The translations under genes and the position numbers were made by a program. A stretch of DNA of 63,157 nucleotides, filler included, from Hausera hauseri (taxonomy: Eukaryota): assembly GCA_046269625.1 (NCBI GenBank). It is 10 parts of 10 records of this genome, joined end to end, with 100 filler letters (N's around TTAATTAATTAA, not from the genome) between each part and the next. Parts side by side here need not be neighbours in the genome. Positions count along the whole stretch, not along the records: positions 17,491 to 23,574 come from JBJURY010142980.1; 9 more parts are not named here. One strand, written 5' to 3'. Numbering within the stretch: the first letter of the stretch is position 1; the number at the start of each line of letters is the position of its first letter. Shown here in pieces: positions 17,491 to 55,463 of the stretch. The notes beneath the pieces were generated by a model, which worked only from the letters and a program-made list of their open reading frames with translations, did not search any database and was not told where the DNA came from.

Positions 17491-20400
17491 GTTATAGTTT
17501 ATACAGATCATCAGGCATTAGAAAAACTTGATTGTAAAAACAAACGTATCTATAATCGAATACAACGTTGGAAGATGGAACTATTAAATTACAATCCGAA
17601 ATTTAAATACGTACCAGGAAAACTTCACAGTGATGCAGATGCTATATCGAGAACCATATATCCTGAGATCAATTCGGCAGCATTTACTCCGATAGAAGAA
17701 CATGAATTTACTACAATGATGACAGAATTTGCAAATCTTAATACAGATAAATTAGCAACCGTTCAAGATGACGATCCTTTGCTCTATGTTGTGAAAAAAT
17801 ATGTACACACTTCCGAAATGCCTAATATTGACAAACGTTTAACGGAATGGCTAATAGACCATAAAAGTAAATTGATTATTGATAGAAATATACTGAAATA
17901 TATCTACAATGATAGAGCTTTAATTGTTATACCTAGTTCATTGATAAAATCAGTCTTACTTCAAGAACATGATTCTCACCTAGCTGGTCACCCATCGTTG
18001 GGCAAAACCATAAAACGTATTAAACTTAAATACTTTTGGCCAAATCAAACAGAGGATATTGTTAATTGGGTCAAATCTTGTAAGATTTGTGCAACCCGAA
18101 GGGATAGGGGAAGATGTATAAGACCAACGCTGGGAACACTTCCAGAGCCCAAAGCACCTATGGAAATATGTGCTATGGATATTTCAGGACCTTATCCGAC
18201 ATCTGAATCAGGCTATAAATATATACTGAGTTTTATCGATTATTACACAAGTTACATTATACTAATCCCATTAAAAACTATGACTACAGAAGCAATAGCA
18301 ATGGAATTGTTTAACAAATTAATATGCATATTCGGATCACCTAGATTAATATTAACTGATAGAGCTCCATATTTTACGAGTCAACTGTTTAATGAAGTTT
18401 CAAAAGTACTTCAAACTAGACATGTATTAACCACAGCTTACCATCCACAGTGTAATGGTAAAGTAGAACGATCTAATAGAACTGTGCAGGGAATTTTATC
18501 TGTACAAGTCTCTGCAGATCAGAAAAATTGGTCAGATAAATTGCCAACTGTAGCTTTCGCCATGGATACCACACCGACGAGAAGTACAAATAAAACACCA
18601 TATGAATTGATGTTTGGAAGACTTCCTTTATTACCATTAGACATTGAACTACTACCAACAGCTTTACCATTTACGGGTAACCAACAAGAAGAAAACTACA
18701 TGGTTTTACTGAAACAACTAAGTGATTATGGAGAACAATCGAGAGCAGTTAGAGAAGAGTACAAAAAATCCTACACTAAACATTATAATAAAAAGGCTCA
18801 AGCAAATCCTTATAAAAAAGGAGATTTCATCATGATACACTATCCAGTGACAGCCAAAGGAAAATCCCTAAAGCTGACACGCACTGGCAAAGGTCCTTAT
18901 AAAGTTGTGGAAGTTAGACCACAAACTCTATTTATTGAAAAATCTCCAGGAAAAATAGAGAATGTTTCTATACAGAATGTAACTAGAGCTCCAAAATCGT
19001 ATACAGGAAAATTCGGTCTTACATCACCAAATTTGCTTTCCACTAATTTGTTAACAATGATTTGCATTCTCATTATTTTGTTATCTTGTACTCATGCGAG
19101 TTATGGTCAATTTAATATTCCTTATAAATCTATGGTACAACTAGTTGAGCAGAATCAAAACCATACAGCTAGCGACGAGATATTTAACAAGGAAATACAA
19201 GTGCTCGGACCAGATTTTGAAAGGGGCTGTATAAAGTTCAAAAAGAGACGTACCAGCAATATTGTGCGAATAGTGATTTTCTATAAAGAAAAATTGGCGT
19301 TTACAGATTTGGATAACGAGAATAACTTAACATGTCTTTTAGTAATTAGAGATCAACTATTTTCCTTGCTTGCACTAATTTTCAAGAGTAATAAAGAGAA
19401 TAAGTGGGACCTGCATCTAACCGTCAAATCTAGCATAAAATGTCTAATACCTTTCAAAATTAATGAATGTATCTACGACATCGCTTTTATGACTGAGCAA
19501 AATAGATGCAATATACCCTATAAAGAGTATAGAAAGATGGCGAAGTATAATGATTTAGAGATTACCGAAAATTTATTTGTACTGATTTACCCTAAACCAG
19601 ATCGAATAGTATTCGCTCGGAATTATCAATCAAATATTAAGAATACACAAGTTAGTATCGCTTGTATAAATCAGCATCATCAACAACGAATTATCCTCGA
19701 AAGGAATCAAAAATGTGCCCATTGTGTAAAGTTAAGCTCGGACACTGATTACTTAATAGTGATAAAAACCTGTACTCATTATTCAGAAATGCATGTTAGA
19801 ACCTTACCCAGAGTAAATAAAATAATCAAGTTTAATTATAATAAAAAAGACTCTAAGACTGATTCACAAACTTTGAAACCAGAAATCGACAATATCGAAT
19901 CAAGCATTGCCGTGTGTGCTTTTTTAATCATCATGTTAAGTATAGCTTTGTTGTTTGTGTTGGCTATAGGCACTTTAATTATTCCAAAAATAGTTCGACA
20001 TAGTCATACTGACACTATCACGTGTCACTGCCCACTAATCTCAAGATGGCGGTCACAGACTAGTCATCCGCACGAGCATTTATCGCACACACTACATGCG
20101 CCCCCACAAATAGCTACATTATTAGCATGTTCATTGGTTGTATGTTGTATACACACCAACAAAGGTGAGTATTTAAACGAATTTTATTTATTTTCAGCTC
20201 TCTACAAATTCAATTTCAGTATGAAACGTCAAAATCCGAAAATGACAAAAAATGATTCACAAATCCAGTCTAGCTTATTGTATTCCAAGATGAATCCTCA
20301 ATATCATGCAGATCAAATGGACTCACAAACCTTAATTCAGAATTATGGAAATAAAAAAGGAAGCCTCAATAAGACTATGTCAAAAACTTTTTACAACAAC

Positions 20401-22206
20401 ATCAGGAGGCAAATGATAAAAATGGACCATTTCGTAGCTTTAAGCGTGGTTCGAATCCCGAATCAACTAAAGCACGAAATTACTGTGAACAGAAATCTCG
20501 GAATCTATTTGATCCAGGAAGCTCAGCAGTTGGAATTGAGAAGATATATGTCTAAGACTGACATGATAGACGGACTAGTGATCCATGTCGCCAGAGGTAT
20601 GATCAGCTTAAAAACAAGGAACGAACAACATTATTCGGATTCAACAGTCTGCAGAATCTGTGAAGAAGAAACTTTATTTATTAATACTCCCATGAGTATT
20701 GATTTAATCCAAGCCAGACCCATGTATGTACCACTCGTTATAATGTTGGAATGGCTTCTTCCCGAAAAACATTTATATTTACCCAGACCTATGATCTTGG
20801 CTCATAACCCTCCAGAAATGGTGAAACAATCCAGATTGAATTTTATTAATACTAATCAAAGTAATACAATCAGAATATTAGCAGTTTCTGTCGGGTACAT
20901 GCAAGATAATTGCCCCTTACCTATTCATGTCATTATCGCCAATAAAAAAGGGACTATATTATATGAAGCTATAATAGCTAACAGGAAGAAGGTACATAAT
21001 GTTAATTCAGTAAGACACGGCATATTACCTGAGTACATCGCTCATCAGGGACAAGACATATTTGACGTTACTAGAGAAATGATTAATTGGTTATTCGGTG
21101 TAGTGGTAGTTGGATTAGAGACCCATAAAATGTTAGAGGCTTTTGACATACCATTGAATTATTTTGCAGGAATAATAGATTTATTAAAACATGAAGAGAT
21201 TACTGGACATACTTTCCAACAGCTGACGCTAATAAATATCAGTAATCTTCTAAAATTACCCGGATCAAGAAACAGCCAAGGATATGCCCAAGATAACCAC
21301 GGTAAATTAAGCCTTACCATGGATGTTTTTCATTTAGTGTCCAATCCCTTCCAGGTAGCATGGGTGCCACCGGAACCATTTAACAACGTAATAGATCCCG
21401 GAGAACTGTTTTACAACAGGGAAAAATATCTGGCAGATTTTGCCTGGATCCATCATGTAACAGGAGGACCAATACAGGACACAGATGCCATTGTAGACGA
21501 AATTATAGACGAGTTAAAGACACCATCAGTATCGGATATTTCAGATATGGTCGCAGAAGAAGAAGGGAAACTACAAAGAGAAGATCAAATTCTCGCAACT
21601 AAAGATACGTCTGAAGGAAATTGGGGTAACTGGAATTACAACCCGGGTAGCAAGAATTCAATAGCTATTCAAACGGAAGAAAATGACTTTAATATGTTCA
21701 CCAAAAGAATAATACAAGGACTAACGAAATTTGATATCTTTACATTTCCATATGGAATCATTATTTACACGAGAAACTTTAGCTTTCCCGTAGTAATTGA
21801 TTCTATCGAGACACCGACATATATTGATCAAACAATTCCTCAAATCACGTTACAGTCATGGGATAATAGTAATAACGTACTTATTGGATTTATATACGAA
21901 CGATCAACAGACATAAAAATGCTTTTCATATACGAGGAATACGAAAGATTGTACAAGTTACCGATACGCTTGGATGCAGACTTTCATATCAAACTCCCAA
22001 TACAGTTAAAAAATAATGTGGCGATGACGAAGCTTAAGAACGAACATAAAGGAGGAAAATTGATTTATATCCTATTAATCAAACACCAAAGACCCATTAT
22101 GATACCAATAGAACGAGTACCACAAGGAAAGAAGCCAGATCCGGAGTTAACGCTGACATACAGAATTGAAAAGGAAATCAGACAAGAAGTTGACCTAGAC
22201 TATTAA
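17491..22206 (+). CDS. 5'-partial uninterrupted Gypsy polyprotein: RNase H end, integrase, internal signal, Cys-rich ectodomain, TM helix, unknown domain, degenerate DEDDh exonuclease-like fold, unknown C-terminal domain
   Basis: Open from contig start (VIVYTDHQAL...RIQRW...DADAISR); HHCC (HDSHLAGH...CKIC); DDE (MDISGPY, LTDRAPYF, NGKVERSNRT); GPYKVVEV; then ~1050 more codons without a stop. Confidence 0.92.
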   Translation, partial: VIVYTDHQALEKLDCKNKRIYNRIQRWKMELLNYNPKFKYVPGKLHSDADAISRTIYPEINSAAFTPIEEHEFTTMMTEFANLNTDKLATVQDDDPLLYVVKKYVHTSEMPNIDKRLTEWLIDHKSKLIIDRNILKYIYNDRALIVIPSSLIKSVLLQEHDSHLAGHPSLGKTIKRIKLKYFWPNQTEDIVNWVKSCKICATRRDRGRCIRPTLGTLPEPKAPMEICAMDISGPYPTSESGYKYILSFIDYYTSYIILIPLKTMTTEAIAMELFNKLICIFGSPRLILTDRAPYFTSQLFNEVSKVLQTRHVLTTAYHPQCNGKVERSNRTVQGILSVQVSADQKNWSDKLPTVAFAMDTTPTRSTNKTPYELMFGRLPLLPLDIELLPTALPFTGNQQEENYMVLLKQLSDYGEQSRAVREEYKKSYTKHYNKKAQANPYKKGDFIMIHYPVTAKGKSLKLTRTGKGPYKVVEVRPQTLFIEKSPGKIENVSIQNVTRAPKSYTGKFGLTSPNLLSTNLLTMICILIILLSCTHASYGQFNIPYKSMVQLVEQNQNHTASDEIFNKEIQVLGPDFERGCIKFKKRRTSNIVRIVIFYKEKLAFTDLDNENNLTCLLVIRDQLFSLLALIFKSNKENKWDLHLTVKSSIKCLIPFKINECIYDIAFMTEQNRCNIPYKEYRKMAKYNDLEITENLFVLIYPKPDRIVFARNYQSNIKNTQVSIACINQHHQQRIILERNQKCAHCVKLSSDTDYLIVIKTCTHYSEMHVRTLPRVNKIIKFNYNKKDSKTDSQTLKPEIDNIESSIAVCAFLIIMLSIALLFVLAIGTLIIPKIVRHSHTDTITCHCPLISRWRSQTSHPHEHLSHTLHAPPQIATLLACSLVVCCIHTNKGEYLNEFYLFSALYKFNFSMKRQNPKMTKNDSQIQSSLLYSKMNPQYHADQMDSQTLIQNYGNKKGSLNKTMSKTFYNNIRRQMIKMDHFVALSVVRIPNQLKHEITVNRNLGIYLIQEAQQLELRRYMSKTDMIDGLVIHVARGMISLKTRNEQHYSDSTVCRICEEETLFINTPMSIDLIQARPMYVPLVIMLEWLLPEKHLYLPRPMILAHNPPEMVKQSRLNFINTNQSNTIRILAVSVGYMQDNCPLPIHVIIANKKGTILYEAIIANRKKVHNVNSVRHGILPEYIAHQGQDIFDVTREMINWLFGVVVVGLETHKMLEAFDIPLNYFAGIIDLLKHEEITGHTFQQLTLINISNLLKLPGSRNSQGYAQDNHGKLSLTMDVFHLVSNPFQVAWVPPEPFNNVIDPGELFYNREKYLADFAWIHHVTGGPIQDTDAIVDEIIDELKTPSVSDISDMVAEEEGKLQREDQILATKDTSEGNWGNWNYNPGSKNSIAIQTEENDFNMFTKRIIQGLTKFDIFTFPYGIIIYTRNFSFPVVIDSIETPTYIDQTIPQITLQSWDNSNNVLIGFIYERSTDIKMLFIYEEYERLYKLPIRLDADFHIKLPIQLKNNVAMTKLKNEHKGGKLIYILLIKHQRPIMIPIERVPQGKKPDPELTLTYRIEKEIRQEVDLDY

Positions 22207-22397
22207 TATTTGTGATTAATTGTGGGTGATAACTTTACATCTTGTCTTGATCCTTTGTTTTATGTATATTCTTGCATGTTTCTTATATTTTTATTTTTAT
22301 TGTTATCTTACATTTTTGTTTCTGCACATTTTAGTTATGTAAATATTAGTAATTCTTTCAACTTCGCTTTGTTTTTGTCATGGTGAATGACCCCTTA

Positions 22398-22835
22398 AGG
22401 GTCGGGGAATGTTGTTAATAGGCTACAGTCTAGACTAGTTGTACTAGTCTAGCCTTAAAATTTGGAAGTGGAGCGCGCGGCTAATTTGAATGATTAATTT
22501 AGTTTATAATTTGCGCCGGCGCCAAGTTTGAATTAGATAAATTTAATATAAATACAGAAAGAAAAACCATTAGGACACACAAATTTTTTACTTCAGTCAA
22601 ATTTTTCTCTCAAAGGAATTTTGGATTACTCCCTTTAAAAATTCTAGATAGAGTTTTTGCATATTTGATTGTTGTATTACGAGTAAGTCTTAGTATACAA
22701 AGTGTTATTTCTGTTAATGATTGACTTGTACATTTGTAAATTTTGTGTTGATTATACGTTATAAAATAATTCCGAGTTCTTCTTAAAAGTAATACGCTAG
22801 ACTCAATCTGCAGAGAGATTGAAGTCAAATAAACA
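22398..22835 (+). repeat. PPT and candidate 3' LTR (22410..22835)
   Basis: AGGGTCGGGGAA then TGTTG; ends AAACA; TATAAATA ~22547; hairpin CTAGACTAGT-TGT-ACTAGTCTAG; no 5' LTR available to confirm. Confidence 0.65.
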
Positions 22836-23574
22836 TTTTTGTTTTTTTCCTAAACTCAGCATTCAAATACATCCAAATATTTCATGAACACCTTGCTGTC
22901 TAAATTGTAACAGAATTGCAAGGTGCGTATTGAAAGTATCAAATCTCACTGTACAAAAGAATATTTCTTGCTCGATATAAGGAAATCTGTAAGCTTGGCA
23001 TTATTTTTGAGGATAAGAAGTTCTTTTCTATGTCTTCCCTGCCAGTTTGTCCTCAATTTATTTTCCAGTTTGGAAACAGTAGGACCAGTACTTTGCTATC
23101 ATCAACCAACATAGACATTCACAGACATGTGGTCCATTGCAACTACACAATCACACTGAAGGGCGCTGCAGACATCCGCCTCCATCCTCGCATGGATCCA
23201 AATCGCTGATCTGCCTGGAGCATAAGCCTCTTTGTTGATTCTAGTGGTTTACATAAAGAAGTAGAATGAAAGCCGTGCCTGACATTCAGAAAATGAAGTA
23301 AAGCTCGGAGGAAGACCAGAGCGTTGCACACAGATGCATGCTGGAGACATGTTCGCAGTCCTCTTTTATGTGAGCTTGCCCTGTGTGAGAGTGTTGCCTC
23401 AGGGAAAAAGCCTATGATAGTAAGAAGGATCTGGGTGGCTCCATAGATTGGTTTAATGTTGGTCTGCTACTGGTACGTTTGAATCTAAGGAATGCTTTGA
23501 CTCAAACAGTTCTGCTTTATTAGTACAACACAACAACACAACAAGTCAGGAATATTCTTGAACGCAAACAAATT

Positions 23575-44233: not shown

Positions 44234-45650
44234 CGGGAAAAATGCAAGGAATTCTGAAATCATACGCTATTCGTTACAATGATAAATTCCAACCTGTCAT
44301 TATCACTGAGAAAACCGGTGTTGCTTCTTCTAACAAAACCATTTTAAAATTATCACCGCACCGACAACACACATTCTATAGATCAATGTCTAACGAGATC
44401 AAAGAAGGGTCCAAAGATCCGTATTCCTATACTATTGAGCGGGATAACCCGAATGCGCCAACGTATATTCATGAAGATAAACTTCCAACATCAACGTTTA
44501 AAGTTTCGTGGACATCGGCGTCAGATGAATTTGGTCATATTAACAGCTACTTTTTGGAAATCGGTGAAGTTAACTCTAATTCCCAGCCGACTATATATCA
44601 TATTGGTACACTTGAACGTCAATTCCCCATTAAAAATCTAATGGCTCGCACTTCTTACATCGTTTATTTGGCATCGGTAAATTCAATTGGTAAGAGCAAA
44701 CCTATTCCAACTACAGTCAGAACAGACAGAGAAGAACAGACAGCACCGAAAATTGTCAATAACTACATCAACGGCGAGTCAGTTCGATTGACTTGGGAAA
44801 ATCTGTTTGTCGGCAATGAAACTGCAGAGTACACGTACCGCACTTGTTGCCAACGAGGATTGCACAATTAGGAATGCATTGATACTTTACCGACTTTGGA
44901 AAATAGTCAATGTCACTGGCGATTTGATGCTAAAGTTTATTGGGTGGAATCACGTAAAAAACAACTGGAACGCTTCGTCGGTTTACGTATGGATTAGACT
45001 ATCTGTCCCTAGTGAATTATGTAATAATCCTCCAAATTGTCCGCGATTAAAATTGTCTTCTTCGAAACATATGCTTAATTTTACATACTATCATCCACCA
45101 ATTCCCGTTTTGAATATTGTTGAACATATTCTTAGTTGTCGAGCTGACTGTGGAGCGGGATTTCAAACAGAGTCTGAGGCTGTCGAAAATTCTGATCTCA
45201 AAAAATGGTTAATTACACATGCAAAACTAAAGGAAAATCAATTGAAAAACCACTACACAAATATTTTTTCTTATGATCATAGTAAAGTTATTTTGCAAAA
45301 TTCGTTCAGCGGGAAATCCGATAATATAAATACTAGTTTCATTGACGGTTATAAGCGCACAAATCCATACATGGTCACTCAGGGACCGTTGAAAGATACG
45401 ATTCCGGATTTCTGGCAAATGGTTCGGGAGCAGAATTGTGACATCATCTCAATGATATCGAATTTCTATGAACGAGGTCGTTCTAAGCGCGAAGAATATT
45501 TGTCTACTAATGAAACGCTTTATGGAAACATAAGCGTTCGACTGGTTTACGACACTAAGAGAGCCTTTTTTACGGAACGTCGATTTAAAATTCGAAATAT
45601 GCGAAATTTTTTTAAACTCCAACACGTACGATGGCAGTTCTTTTGTGTAA
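44234..45650 (+). pseudogene. Fragmented receptor-type protein tyrosine phosphatase (FN3 pieces plus N-half of PTP domain)
   Basis: FN3: KVSW...YFLE...IKNLMARTSYIVYLASVNSIG; PTP: NHYTNIFSYDHSKVIL, INTSFIDGY, TQGPLKDTIPDFWQMV; no TM and no HCSAG. Confidence 0.8.
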
Positions 45651-46289
45651 TCGACACTGATGACGTAATTCAAATAATTATGATTAGCATGTCGAATTTT
45701 ATTACGTATTCATCGAATTCCCTTAATACCAATGCTTTATTTATTTTGAGTTATTTGAAATGTCCCGATTGTAGTAGTTTGACGGAAGAAAAGTTATGTT
45801 CGAAACTCCCACAGATGTTTACTAAACAGGGTGATACGTTTTCGTATTTTACCAAACGCAGCAGTTGGTTGGGAGAATTCCATGTTAATATTATTACTGA
45901 AAACCCGTCCAGTTTCTCCATGCTTTATTTTCCCAACGGATTTGAACGGAACTTTTACGAATTAGTTTCTATTATATTAAAGGGTGCAAATCATATTATT
46001 TTATATTTACAAATGATAATGAACAGTATCAAATCAATGTTTGTTGTTACTGAAGAAGAACCATATATGAATGTTTGTTAGTTGCAATAATGTTAATCAA
46101 TCTTATCATTTCATCATTTACACGAACTGTAGAGAGAGGTGGTATTACAGTGACTCACATCTGATTAGTTAATTGAAACAATTAACAATGTAGGGCTCAA
46201 TATAGCTTTCGACATTCGTTTCCTTGTCTTTTCGGCACAAATAACATCAGGCATTAATAAGATAAATCGAAACTTTTGAAATTAATAAA

Positions 46290-46905
46290 ATGGTCCAGTC
46301 ACCTTGTGGCATTGTTAATCACACATCATCCGTGCCTTGTCTTGTCAAATCTACAAAACCCAACACCGAATCATTTATGGAATTTGATGAATCTGTAATG
46401 AGACGAGGTGGAATTAAGGCACATTATTGCAAAGTCGGCCCGATTTATTCTTCTGATGACAGCGAGTATATGATTAGAATTTCTGACTATGGACAGAACC
46501 CGTTCTCCTCTGGTCATTGTCGACTTTCTTCAGTAATCATCAGTTATAAGCGCAATAGATTCATTAACCATAGGGAGTCCACAGATCGATCAGATCTTCA
46601 CCTTAACCTTCTGTGCGCAAATTTTAGTAAAATAGAAAACAATACTTTTATCTTTATCGGTGGTAGATCTTTGCCTCTCGAACCAAACAAGTGTATATTT
46701 CGGTTGTGTTTTACAGAGGAACTAAAATCATACGATTGTTTCCTGATATATAAAGAAATTCTTTGTGAAGCAGGCTCTTTTGTGCAGATTTTACGATGGC
46801 GATATGGTTGTGCTTGTTATTGAATTCACAAAATATTACAGTTGTTTATTTATGGAGGCAGAATAACGAAAGGATTCCAACGAAATATTTCGGGATCGGT
46901 TTCAG
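46290..46905 (+). pseudogene. Kelch-repeat fragment resembling TYW4/LCMT2
   Basis: EFDE...KAHY (end of LCMT-like domain), FIFIGGRSLP, RWRYG, LFIYGGR; in-frame stop at 46821. Confidence 0.55.
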
Positions 46906-52623: not shown

Positions 52624-55463
52624 CTATCAACGTTTGTTCTCATTATATTAATTGGGATTTTTCGGTTAGTTGCCAAAAACTGTTATTGCAAACGTCCCAA
52701 AACCACAGAATTGGAATTAAGGGAATTGGAAACCGCTGTTGACCCATGTGATAAAATAATCTGGCAACTACTGAGTGGGTTATTCTATTATCAAACAAAT
52801 AATTGGTTTTATTTCATGTCCGTGCTTTGCTGTAAGATTAACCCTTACTGTTTATTTTTTAGATTGATGAGTAAGACTTCGAGAACAGAAACCGGACAAT
52901 GTAGAATCGACGGATCGCAATCAACCAAAGAACACCGAGTTCCTCCGAAAACGTGCTACCGTATATATCCCGAATTCAAAATTGATCTTCAAATAAATAA
53001 GCGACGAACTACATGAGAAGACATACGTAGAATACAACCAGATAAGTGAAATCCCTAATAACTTAAAAAGGCATAATGGAAGAAACTCGTTTCGTGTATC
53101 TGTATCCAATGTGGGAGAACAAAGATAATAGAGCGTACGCCTTAAAACAAATGATTAAATACGAACCTATTCATCAGCAGAGCATTTATATACACCTAGC
53201 GGATGGTGAGATATATTATCGGATAAAAGATCAGGCATGGAATGCCAATAGTTGAAGACAGTACAGATTTAGTACCTTTTTCTATGTAGTGGAGATCTGT
53301 CATTACGACTTAGAATTTCAAGTAGCCACACTCACTGTAAAAATGATGTTTGAAGTAACTTATGAAGATTATCCTTATGTCCAGTTACCGTCCTGGAAAT
53401 TTTACCAACAACCGTCAGAAATATCAAAACTGTCGTCCAGATTAGTACCCGATGCCCGAAACACAAGGATAATAGCAGTTAGTTGTGGAGAAGGAAGCGA
53501 TGCGCAAGAAATTTCGATTGAAGTTTCAGTCCTTGAAACGAGCGAAACAAAAATATACTGCAAAACTATTAACCCTAGAAAACGCGTGCGCGAAACGTAT
53601 TGTGATGCAACAGGAATCCGTAAAGAGACCCTTGCGAGAGAAGATATTAAGCATGTCCAAGCCGAATGAGAACATTGTTTATACAGATGCATCGTCGCTG
53701 GATATCGCGTCCACAAAATTGTTGAATTATTGAAATAATTCCGCTCAAGTATCGTAGGAATACGAGGCATAGGGACACACGTCGTGGTCGCGAAGCAAAC
53801 AAAATCGACGTTGCGAGAAAGAAATTATCCTATGCCAAAAATTACGGATGAATATTTCAAGTTAATGATCGATGCCATGAATAGTAAACATGTCAAGATT
53901 AGTAAACTATTAACTTCAAGCCAAAGAACACAATACTTGCATGATATTTACGTGACTTTAAAATTGGACCATGAATGAATCCCCACAAACCCAGAACAGA
54001 ACATAAGAAGCTCCACTAGTCCAGAAAAAACGAGTAAAAAACAGCGAAAACACTACCGAACTTACTCCATGCATATAACTCTTGAACCCGTCAGTCACGA
54101 TAATATTCGAATAACCGTTTCAAGTATTTGCCAGACTGCAGAAAATAAACCTACTACTATCTATGGATTGAGTTCTACCTCGGACAAAAATCAAGCCAAG
54201 CTGACAGCAAACCCACCATTCAGCCCTGAAAAGAAATGCAAAGAGGAAACGATCTCCACTCATTTCAAATTACGAGTAACCCCAAAGAAATATTCTAAAA
54301 AAGCACAAGGAAAAAATGCCCCGAAATGACAGAAAATGAAAATTCCGGCATTTACCCCAAAAAGAAAACTGGCTCTTTACGAATGTTTTTAAAAGGAAGG
54401 CCAAGAGCACAGAAGACAAAAAGGAAATATCAAAATATATGCAGGAATCACTCAAAATGTAAGTTCCATAGAAAATTGAAGAATCCGAAACTCCCAAAAA
54501 GGAAATCTGACCTATACCCCTACAAAAAGTAGATGTACGGAAAACAGAACCGATCCGAAGAAAAGTCAAAACTGAAGCTCACAAAAGAAATTCAGGAGAC
54601 GAATTTATGCAAGTGTTTACAGAAGTGAATATTTTTCGAAGAAATCAATCTAACGAGAATGTCCATTACGCCATCCAGGATGATTATTCCATAATGCTGG
54701 TTATGGCCGAGTATTGTAGCCACTAGCAGATCAAGGAAGCTGTATTTCACGTCAAAAAGTTAGAATCACGCAAAGTTATGGAAGACTCGTATATATGGGA
54801 AAACCTGAAAGCAGGAAAATACCTCGCCGCGATATTTTAATCGAAAAGGACTGGAAAGTTATCATTATTAGTAGATTAGCAAATCAAGGTACTATTAAAG
54901 AAACAATATGAAGCCTAACAGAAAGGAAAACATGTCCCAGGTTGGGATAAGAATACCATAGTGGACTGGACTTTTGTACCAGTAAACTACGATCGCCGTA
55001 GAAGATCTAGAGATCCAAAATAAAAGTCAATTCATGGCTGCCTTTACCAAGACCAGGACGGATTGGTATTTGAACCTATACAGGTCATTCTAGAGTCGAT
55101 TTGGACCGAGAAGATACAGATGAAGAAGAGGACCACTGTCCCGTCTGCAGAGAAATCATCACCCAAGGATTCGTTAAGTTAAACAACAAGGAATGTAGAC
55201 ATAAATATTGTCGAGCTTGTCTGGAAACCTGGATTTTAGATAATGGAAAAACTACATGTCCAGTATGTCATGCAAAGGCCGTCGAACTTAGGTACTATTC
55301 GGATGGTACTCATAATCGAACCATGTGCATTAAACCCTCAACTAGCTATGTACTAGAACCTACGGACGACATGGAGAATGAAGCGGGCCTTAAGCGTCGC
55401 CTTAACCGCCTCAGGCGACCAAACAATGGTGTCACATCTCTTGACGCAATAGTCACATCCTAG
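52624..55463 (+). pseudogene. Decayed accessory region of a Gypsy element homologous to 19900..21400: TM helix, unknown domain, DEDDh-like fold, Lys-rich linker, C3HC4 RING
   Basis: LSTFVLIILIGIF TM; EIPNNLK; IYIHLADG; TRIIAVSCG...INPRKRV...TGI; RING CPVC-x15-CRH-x2-CRAC-x13-CPVC at 55137..55268. Confidence 0.75.

Follow-up and report, generated by a model that had tools for sequence, protein, structure and literature searches.

An apparently inactive ISG20-like exonuclease domain encoded by a Ty3/Gypsy retrotransposon of Hausera hauseri

The window analysed here, a stretch of 63,157 nucleotides from the Hausera hauseri assembly GCA_046269625.1, consists of ten contigs joined by N spacers. 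The gene under study lies on contig 3 (17491-23574), where an initial annotation had proposed a domain of unknown type followed by a degenerate REX4/ISG20-like exonuclease fold. All of the motifs quoted from contig 3 are present in one open frame (RIPNQLK at 20452, LVIHVARG at 20575, PPEMVKQSRL at 20809, IRILAVSVG at 20869, and VVVG at 21103); the other two frames contain 102 and 86 stops over 3,150 nt. Upstream in the same frame is the 3′ part of a Ty3/Gypsy pol gene. The order of RNase H and integrase, the polypurine tract, and the long terminal repeat (LTR) characteristic of Ty3/Gypsy elements are all present, and the best PDB match of the integrase region is Ty3 Gag-Pol (E 3.5e-35). The gag, protease, and reverse transcriptase regions of the element lie beyond the contig edge. 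The two-domain gene is thus the cargo of a Ty3/Gypsy LTR retrotransposon, downstream of the integrase and of an env-like membrane segment (Table 1).

Table 1. Features of the retrotransposon on contig 3 and of the related gene on contig 9 (positions along the window).
Feature	Position	Strand	Basis and remarks
Open frame, 1,571 codons plus stop	17491..22206	+	Truncated on the 5′ side by the contig edge; covers the 3′ part of a Ty3/Gypsy pol fused to an accessory region
End of RNase H, integrase zinc-binding domain, integrase core	17491..18447	+	Pfam PF17917 (E 0.0036), PF17921 (1.3e-17), PF00665 (1.7e-10)
Putative env-like segment	19024..20004	+	Hydrophobic at aa 512-539, then a domain of ~265 aa with Cys residues and a strong transmembrane segment at aa 806-838
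Putative expression signal	20154..20223	+	CACCAA at 20154; mini-intron-like GT..AG of 33 nt, 20165-20197; acceptor-like AATTTCAG, 20212-20219; ATG 20221 (M911)
Predicted cupin-like double-stranded beta-helix	20452..20766	+	Conservation at IPNxxK, R, HxxxG, R, and E/D; lacks a set of His metal ligands
DEDDh (REX4/ISG20-like) exonuclease fold, five catalytic positions all replaced	20866..21369	+	Profile, language-model search, predicted structure
ExoI positions A1131 (for Asp), S1133 (for Glu)	20881..20889	+	Alignments; structural match start offsets agree
ExoII position M1214 (Glu in intact family members)	21130..21132	+	Alignments
ExoIII positions Q1267 (for His), K1272 (for Asp)	21289..21306	+	Register less certain; preceding loop of low pLDDT
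Acidic linker and C-terminal domain	21370..22203	+	No Pfam match at E<=1 for 21382-22203
Polypurine tract	22397-22409	+	Sequence
3′ LTR, 452 bp, TGTTG...CAGCA	22410-22861	+	Sequence; flank-only contigs in runs X2 and X3 start matching at 22861
Decayed family member on contig 9, another dead lineage	52937..54119	+	Frameshift near 53068-53082, in-frame stops; ExoI A-V-S, ExoII Ile
C3HC4 RING finger, contig 9	55137..55268	+	Pfam PF00097, E 3.6e-8

Taken alone, the contig 3 protein gives no RNase_T or cupin hit in Pfam and nothing meaningful in the PDB. A language-model search returned RNase T-type clusters (Atlas 0.91, with PF00929 in 59% of that cluster), and a HMMER scan of 1.84 billion representatives yielded 10 homologs (E 5e-9 to 5e-4), 9 of them spanning both domains; all come from ENA and JGI/IMG records and are unnamed or called ‘hypothetical’. 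The profile of these homologs and the window rows matched ISG20L2 (5e-20), ISG20 (1.8e-10), SDN1 (3.4e-8), and the PolC exonuclease domain (4.7e-5) in the PDB and nothing else at E<=1. PF00929 is detected in 5 of the 15 aligned rows, in each case under the curated cut-off except for P0008 and possibly its close relatives. Profiles built from the database homologs alone recover both domains in contig 3 and in contig 9. Two word-indexed homolog searches found nothing and a third, using the alignment, gave P0008 and two close relatives; locus scans of viral contigs and prokaryote genomes and a first metagenome scan found no locus.

The AlphaFold model computed from the 15-row alignment (mean pLDDT 63, pTM 0.46) predicts a DnaQ-like fold; a single-sequence model (pLDDT 31) was not used. 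Residues 152-319 of the model match ISG20 with Z 17.4 (rmsd 2.9, 157 aligned), ahead of all other representatives, and the host pseudo-exonucleases Exuperantia (Exu) and Maelstrom are matched at Z 10.6 and Z 8.6. Profile and predicted structure together indicate that the second domain is a member of the DEDDh superfamily, in its REX4/ISG20 branch, by descent.

The ExoI D-x-E motif had been described as replaced by S-V-G. Replacement is correct, as neither possible register offers an acidic residue, but the register is most likely A-V-S, two residues away. All six multiple alignments with family members put D-x-E on A1131-V-S1133 with no gap, and the spacing from the ExoI position to an invariant Arg is 34 in 13 of the 15 rows and 33 in the other two. 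The structural match starts pair model residue 150 with SDN1 137, which would put A1131 on SDN1 D144 if the strand is ungapped. Two pairwise or two-sequence alignments favour the S-V-G register, only with a two-residue gap. The ExoII and ExoIII positions are lost as well, beyond what had been noticed at ExoI: the contig 3 protein has A/S/M/Q/K where 6 of 6 intact rows have D/E/E/H/D. The ExoIII register is the weakest of the three, the loop before it (model residues 272-292) having a pLDDT below 50.

Loss of the catalytic residues is frequent in the family. Among the 10 homologs, P0003, P0007, and P0008 keep D-E-E-H-D and 7 lack the ExoI acids (P0011 stops short of ExoII); across the alignment, 9 of 15 rows from at least 5 deep lineages have lost these acids. 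The dead rows carry Ala at the first Asp in 8 of 9 cases and Lys or Arg at a former metal ligand in 5 of 9, and one Arg next to the substrate loop is present in all 15 rows. The best tree needs two changes of catalytic state and a single origin is not rejected (p-AU 0.246), on a tree with long branches for the contig 3 protein and P0010.

An active nuclease using residues other than DEDDh would also explain the replaced positions. Maelstrom is a nuclease of this kind, and in the contig 3 protein acidic and His residues do remain (D1139, D1189, E1210, D1230, D1268, H1270). Glu stands at the ExoIII acid in 4 of 7 dead homologs, where the register is uncertain. However, the first strand lacks an acid in either register, D1189 and D1230 are common to intact rows at non-catalytic places, and we found no Cys, His, or acid column conserved specifically in dead rows across the aligned family. 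We therefore consider a rewired nuclease very improbable. Neither of the two outcomes that would have overturned the initial proposal of a pseudo-nuclease applies, since a DnaQ-like fold is predicted and the dead members have no alternative acidic or Cys/His set in common, and the family profile, the language-model search, the predicted structure, and the comparison with intact relatives all agree with it. The domain on contig 3 is, with high confidence, a catalytically dead DEDDh fold under constraint.

The second element put forward in the initial annotation, on contig 9, does belong to the same family, but it is a broken copy of a distant lineage. Its quoted motifs are present yet are spread over two reading frames with in-frame stops. 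The exonuclease-like parts of contigs 3 and 9 align with a score of 94, which is reached by 0 of 500 shuffles (mean 32, max 53). Contig 9 matches P0004, a homolog with an intact frame, at a tblastn E of 1.7e-72 (profiles, E 1.2e-12 and 1.2e-25), and it groups with P0004 and P0011 in the tree (100/100); contig 3, on its long branch, is not their sister.

The domain upstream of the exonuclease fold appears to be a cupin-like barrel without metal ligands, which we regard as likely, not firm. Model residues 22-118 match the Cupin_2 domain 6b8w with Z 8.5 (rmsd 2.7, 81 aligned, in the two-domain model), a value just over the threshold of the tool for common arrangements. Foldseek on the model gives cupin-type hits for this domain, and the nearest named Atlas clusters are Cupin_2/AraC_binding at 0.89, a lead only. 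No metal-ligand set (His/His/Glu or HxD...H) was found, the only conserved candidates being H1032 and E1087 (Glu/Asp). An AlkB-type enzyme, to which viral Foldseek hits pointed, was ruled out by the absence of metal ligands. The motifs proposed to unite this domain in contigs 3 and 9 are not significant when compared directly, but the relationship is significant through a profile of database homologs (E 8.9e-12 and 1.2e-12); these homologs had been retrieved with contig 3, and two of them are closely related to contig 9.

To see whether the dead domain is being maintained, we estimated selection from diverged copies in run X1, using 34 contig pieces over 20860-21340 (481 nt), in which no indel is listed. 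Among the 40 listed of 103 variable places, 23 fall at third codon positions (p 0.0014), 14 at first, and 3 at second. Synonymous changes make up 21 of the 40 listed differences, compared with the 21-29% expected, for a rough omega of 0.24-0.37. Within the five catalytic-position codons the listed differences include a single change, which is synonymous (Q1267), and one diverged X1 contig end reads V-S-I-G-Y, with the Ser at the Glu position kept through synonymous changes. By this rough and partial estimate, the diverged copies are under purifying selection.

A captured nuclease that died and is merely carried along would leave a neutral relic instead. The contig 3 copy may be a young insertion, in which case its own open frame proves little, the contig 9 copy is decayed, and within-genome variation of the bdelloid ORF3 genes is mostly neutral (PMC5408684). 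Against this, copies that are ~80-85% identical keep the frame with a synonymous excess, and dead lineages at ~20-25% identity keep the fold-defining residues and full-length open reading frames (ORFs). Because of the selection estimate and these full-length dead homologs, the neutral relic is already largely refuted, and we give it hardly any weight.

The accessory protein is likely to be made as a separate 661-aa product from ATG 20221. The acceptor-plus-ATG signature at 20154-20223 also precedes accessory ORFs in four related loci, L001-L004. These contain 15 instances of an acceptor-like AATT(T/G)TAG that has an ATG no more than four bases away, mostly at accessory ORF starts and usually with CACCA upstream. 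This pattern was drawn up after viewing L001-L004, and contig 3 contains the signature and one other, looser match. The alignment of a diverged X1 contig starts exactly at 20221, with none further upstream. Finally, two of the homologs, P0002 and P0006, are 660 and 662 aa long.

Alternatively, the main role of the domain could be that of a cytosolic tail on a Pol-Env-like polyprotein anchored in a membrane, to which it would tether RNA or particles of the element. The frame does stay uninterrupted from the integrase to the domain, across both hydrophobic segments (peaks of 2.37 and 3.16 in hydropathy), contig 9 likewise starts with a hydrophobic segment upstream, and Burro accessory ORFs may be present as subdomains of a polyprotein (PMC6431247). 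No stop interrupts the 72 codons of linker ahead of ATG 20221, which has a chance of ~2% and fits a fused, membrane-anchored form. However, 10 of 10 homologs are free-standing ORFs without an integrase, and both the acceptor-plus-ATG signature at 20212-20223 and the diverged contig without a match upstream of 20221 speak for a separate start, so that we consider this reading improbable.

The env-like signal, ectodomain, and transmembrane segment at 19024-20004 is fused in frame to the integrase and has weak Pfam hints to DUF7043/DUF7044 (DUF7044 E 0.068). Mini-intron-like GT..AG stretches lie at comparable places upstream of the gene, 33 nt in frame at 20165-20197 in contig 3 and 31 nt at 52832-52862 in contig 9. 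A hairpin-forming stretch in the linker (20043-20068) has locally high X1 contig depth and is a possible internal promoter or RNA element; its start presumably resembles a YY1 site.

We propose that the accessory protein is a non-cutting, RNA-binding pseudo-exonuclease that shields or chaperones the RNA of the element, and we give this proposal about an even chance of being right. An ancestral element would have captured an active REX4-like 3′-5′ exonuclease fused to a cupin-like module, and one or more lineages would then have lost the two-metal site while keeping the fold. Splicing would provide a subgenomic RNA for the separate translation of a cytosolic 661-aa protein, and read-through out of the membrane segment could yield a second form. 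The protein would attach to RNA and leave it uncut, probably at 3′ ends or structured regions, thereby protecting or chaperoning element RNA in the face of trimming from the 3′ end or small-RNA surveillance by the host. Exuperantia and the PXL domain of PML are examples of nucleic-acid binding by an inactive DEDD fold (PMC5785220, PMC13659232), and the three properties expected of a pseudo-exonuclease of this type, a fold that is kept, catalytic residues that are absent, and constraint, are all found here. By this analogy, the contig 3 protein probably works like the host pseudo-exonucleases.

Several points weigh against this proposal. The exonuclease-like domain lacks basic character, with a net charge of -1 (-6 to +6 among the dead rows), the structural model is only moderate and not independent of its alignment, and omega was taken from 40 of 103 variable places, which were selected for their support and in which each change was classified singly. 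In addition, a RING finger is fused to the pseudo-nuclease in the contig 9 lineage, where it closes the same ORF in P0004 (PF00097 E 2.6e-7), and points to protein-directed roles.

This last point also speaks for the main rival explanation, in which the protein is a decoy or ubiquitin adaptor that occupies partners of a host nuclease or silencing factor, with RING-bearing lineages routing them to ubiquitination as an anti-defence cassette. Besides the C-terminal RING in P0004 and contig 9 and the domain surface that is not basic, relatives of the gene sit among RING, TRAF/MATH, and coiled-coil ORFs, and we also count in its favour that human PML-I uses a catalytically altered DEDDh domain to promote the degradation of ORF1p and so restrict L1 (PMC10123124). 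The contig 3 protein itself, however, has no RING in a Pfam scan, the RING/TRAF neighbourhood is seen only for members with intact sites (4 related loci), and the basic residues of the former pocket would suit the binding of phosphate. A decoy is possible, though on the unlikely side. Rather unlikely, and put forward tentatively by analogy, is that the dead version, as a disarmed relative of ISG20 and of SDN1, a nuclease that degrades small RNAs, acts as a transposon-encoded suppressor of small-RNA silencing, which would sequester the 3′ ends of guide RNAs or their targets, with RING-fused forms destroying captured host factors.

The neighbourhood in question belongs to the P0008 group, whose members have intact sites and in four loci form a separate ORF among the RING, TRAF/MATH, and coiled-coil ORFs. 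These loci are mutual close relatives and not independent cases, and the genomic context covers intact-site members only. Accessory ORFs (RING, TRAF/MATH, coiled-coil, exonuclease) are arranged in tandem on the same strand at L001:226-2843, L002:54-4652, L003:226-2854, and L004:1-6727, most of them beginning right after an acceptor-like motif. The arrangement suggests that they may be expressed polycistronically and resolved by cis- or trans-splicing. In L001, a Gag that has a CCHC knuckle follows the intact-site gene at a distance of 2.1 kb.

The C-terminal region at 21600-22203 looks globular and hydrophobic-patterned, matches nothing in Pfam, and lacks a counterpart in contig 9; direct alignment of the transmembrane/linker and C-terminal regions of contigs 3 and 9 stays at chance level. 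Many copies of the element are present in run X1, one with 2 differences in 834 nt, where the 3′ flank (22861-23574) is found at low depth only. Contig depth summed over X1 is far higher for the integrase than for the accessory region, but as depth does not measure copy number, no use was made of this difference. Runs X2 and X3 contain the 3′ flank 22861-23574 with 2 and 5 differences in 714 nt, and their flank contigs have other sequence in place of the LTR, an apparent empty site, with almost no match to the coding region. The X1 copies and the X2/X3 empty site may reflect a recent insertion or a transfer between species. Gypsy elements also occur elsewhere in the window: FN3 and protein-tyrosine-phosphatase ORFs (44236-46820), which may be host genes or captured cargo, precede a decayed element on contig 8, and decayed coatomer beta-like fragments adjoin an element on contig 10 (57969-59327). 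A COPB-like fragment and a receptor-type phosphatase suggest that the window is animal DNA.

Both exonuclease ORFs in retrotransposons and host pseudo-exonucleases are already known. The second domain has its best profile and structural matches in ISG20, ISG20L2, and SDN1 of the REX4-REX1 DEDDh branch (PDB 1wlj, 7yw5, 5z9x); in contrast to these host enzymes with a complete D-E-D-H-D, it has all five residues replaced, stands behind a cupin-like module, and is encoded by a retrotransposon. As in the DEDDy ORF3s of the bdelloid Juno, Vesta, and Terminon elements (Rodriguez et al. 2017, PMC5408684), a DnaQ-like exonuclease serves as an accessory ORF of an LTR retrotransposon. These ORF3s, noted again in PMC6338049, are typically expressed from spliced messages and have DEDD changed to DEED (PMC5408684), and a Glu at the third acid is common to them and to the intact members of the present family. 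However, the bdelloid proteins are RNase D-like DEDDy enzymes with intact catalytic residues and no transmembrane domains, whereas the family described here is DEDDh/ISG20-like, has a cupin-like domain at its N-terminus, and includes 7 catalytically dead members among its 10 homologs. Its intact relatives have the ExoIII His and match ISG20/REX over RNase D, in a comparison made by type, without rotifer sequences, and thus fall outside the bdelloid DEDDy ORF3s.

A DEDD fold without catalytic residues is shared with Exuperantia, the PML PXL domain, Maelstrom, and EXD1 (PMC5785220, PMC13659232, PMC10123124, PMC5408684). Those, however, are host genes that belong to different DEDD branches and carry additions of SAM-like or MAEL-specific type; no SAM-like domain was seen in the contig 3 protein, and ISG20 fits it far better. 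The intact-site relatives among RING, TRAF/MATH, and coiled-coil ORFs upstream of Gag also recall the giant Burro/GYPSM1 Gypsy elements of planarians, for which an upstream MATH/TRAF accessory ORF has been described in Dugesia tigrina (PMC6431247). The Burro layout of a giant polyprotein, env between gag and pol, and upstream RING/TRAF ORFs is fitted in part by L001-L004. In contig 3, of which the 5′ part is missing, the membrane segment follows the integrase and the gene stands beside the 3′ LTR, and neither an exonuclease nor a cupin is listed in the excerpted text of PMC6431247; the term ‘exonuclease’ has 0 occurrences in PMC8532177. No description of Gypsy elements with live and dead forms of an ISG20-type DEDDh domain behind a cupin-like N-domain was found, in literature coverage that excludes most subscription papers and Repbase. 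An accessory family that joins these two domains in live and dead versions on animal Gypsy elements is thus apparently an undescribed combination.

On related elements, this one family provides the same two-domain protein in naturally active and inactive versions. This makes it possible to test why retroelements capture exonucleases, a question left open in PMC5408684, and by what route a nuclease turns into a pseudo-enzyme. If the dead version does suppress piRNA or small interfering RNA silencing, it would be a transposon-side mirror of the host pseudo-nucleases Maelstrom and EXD1; to our knowledge, few counter-defence proteins are known from animal retrotransposons.

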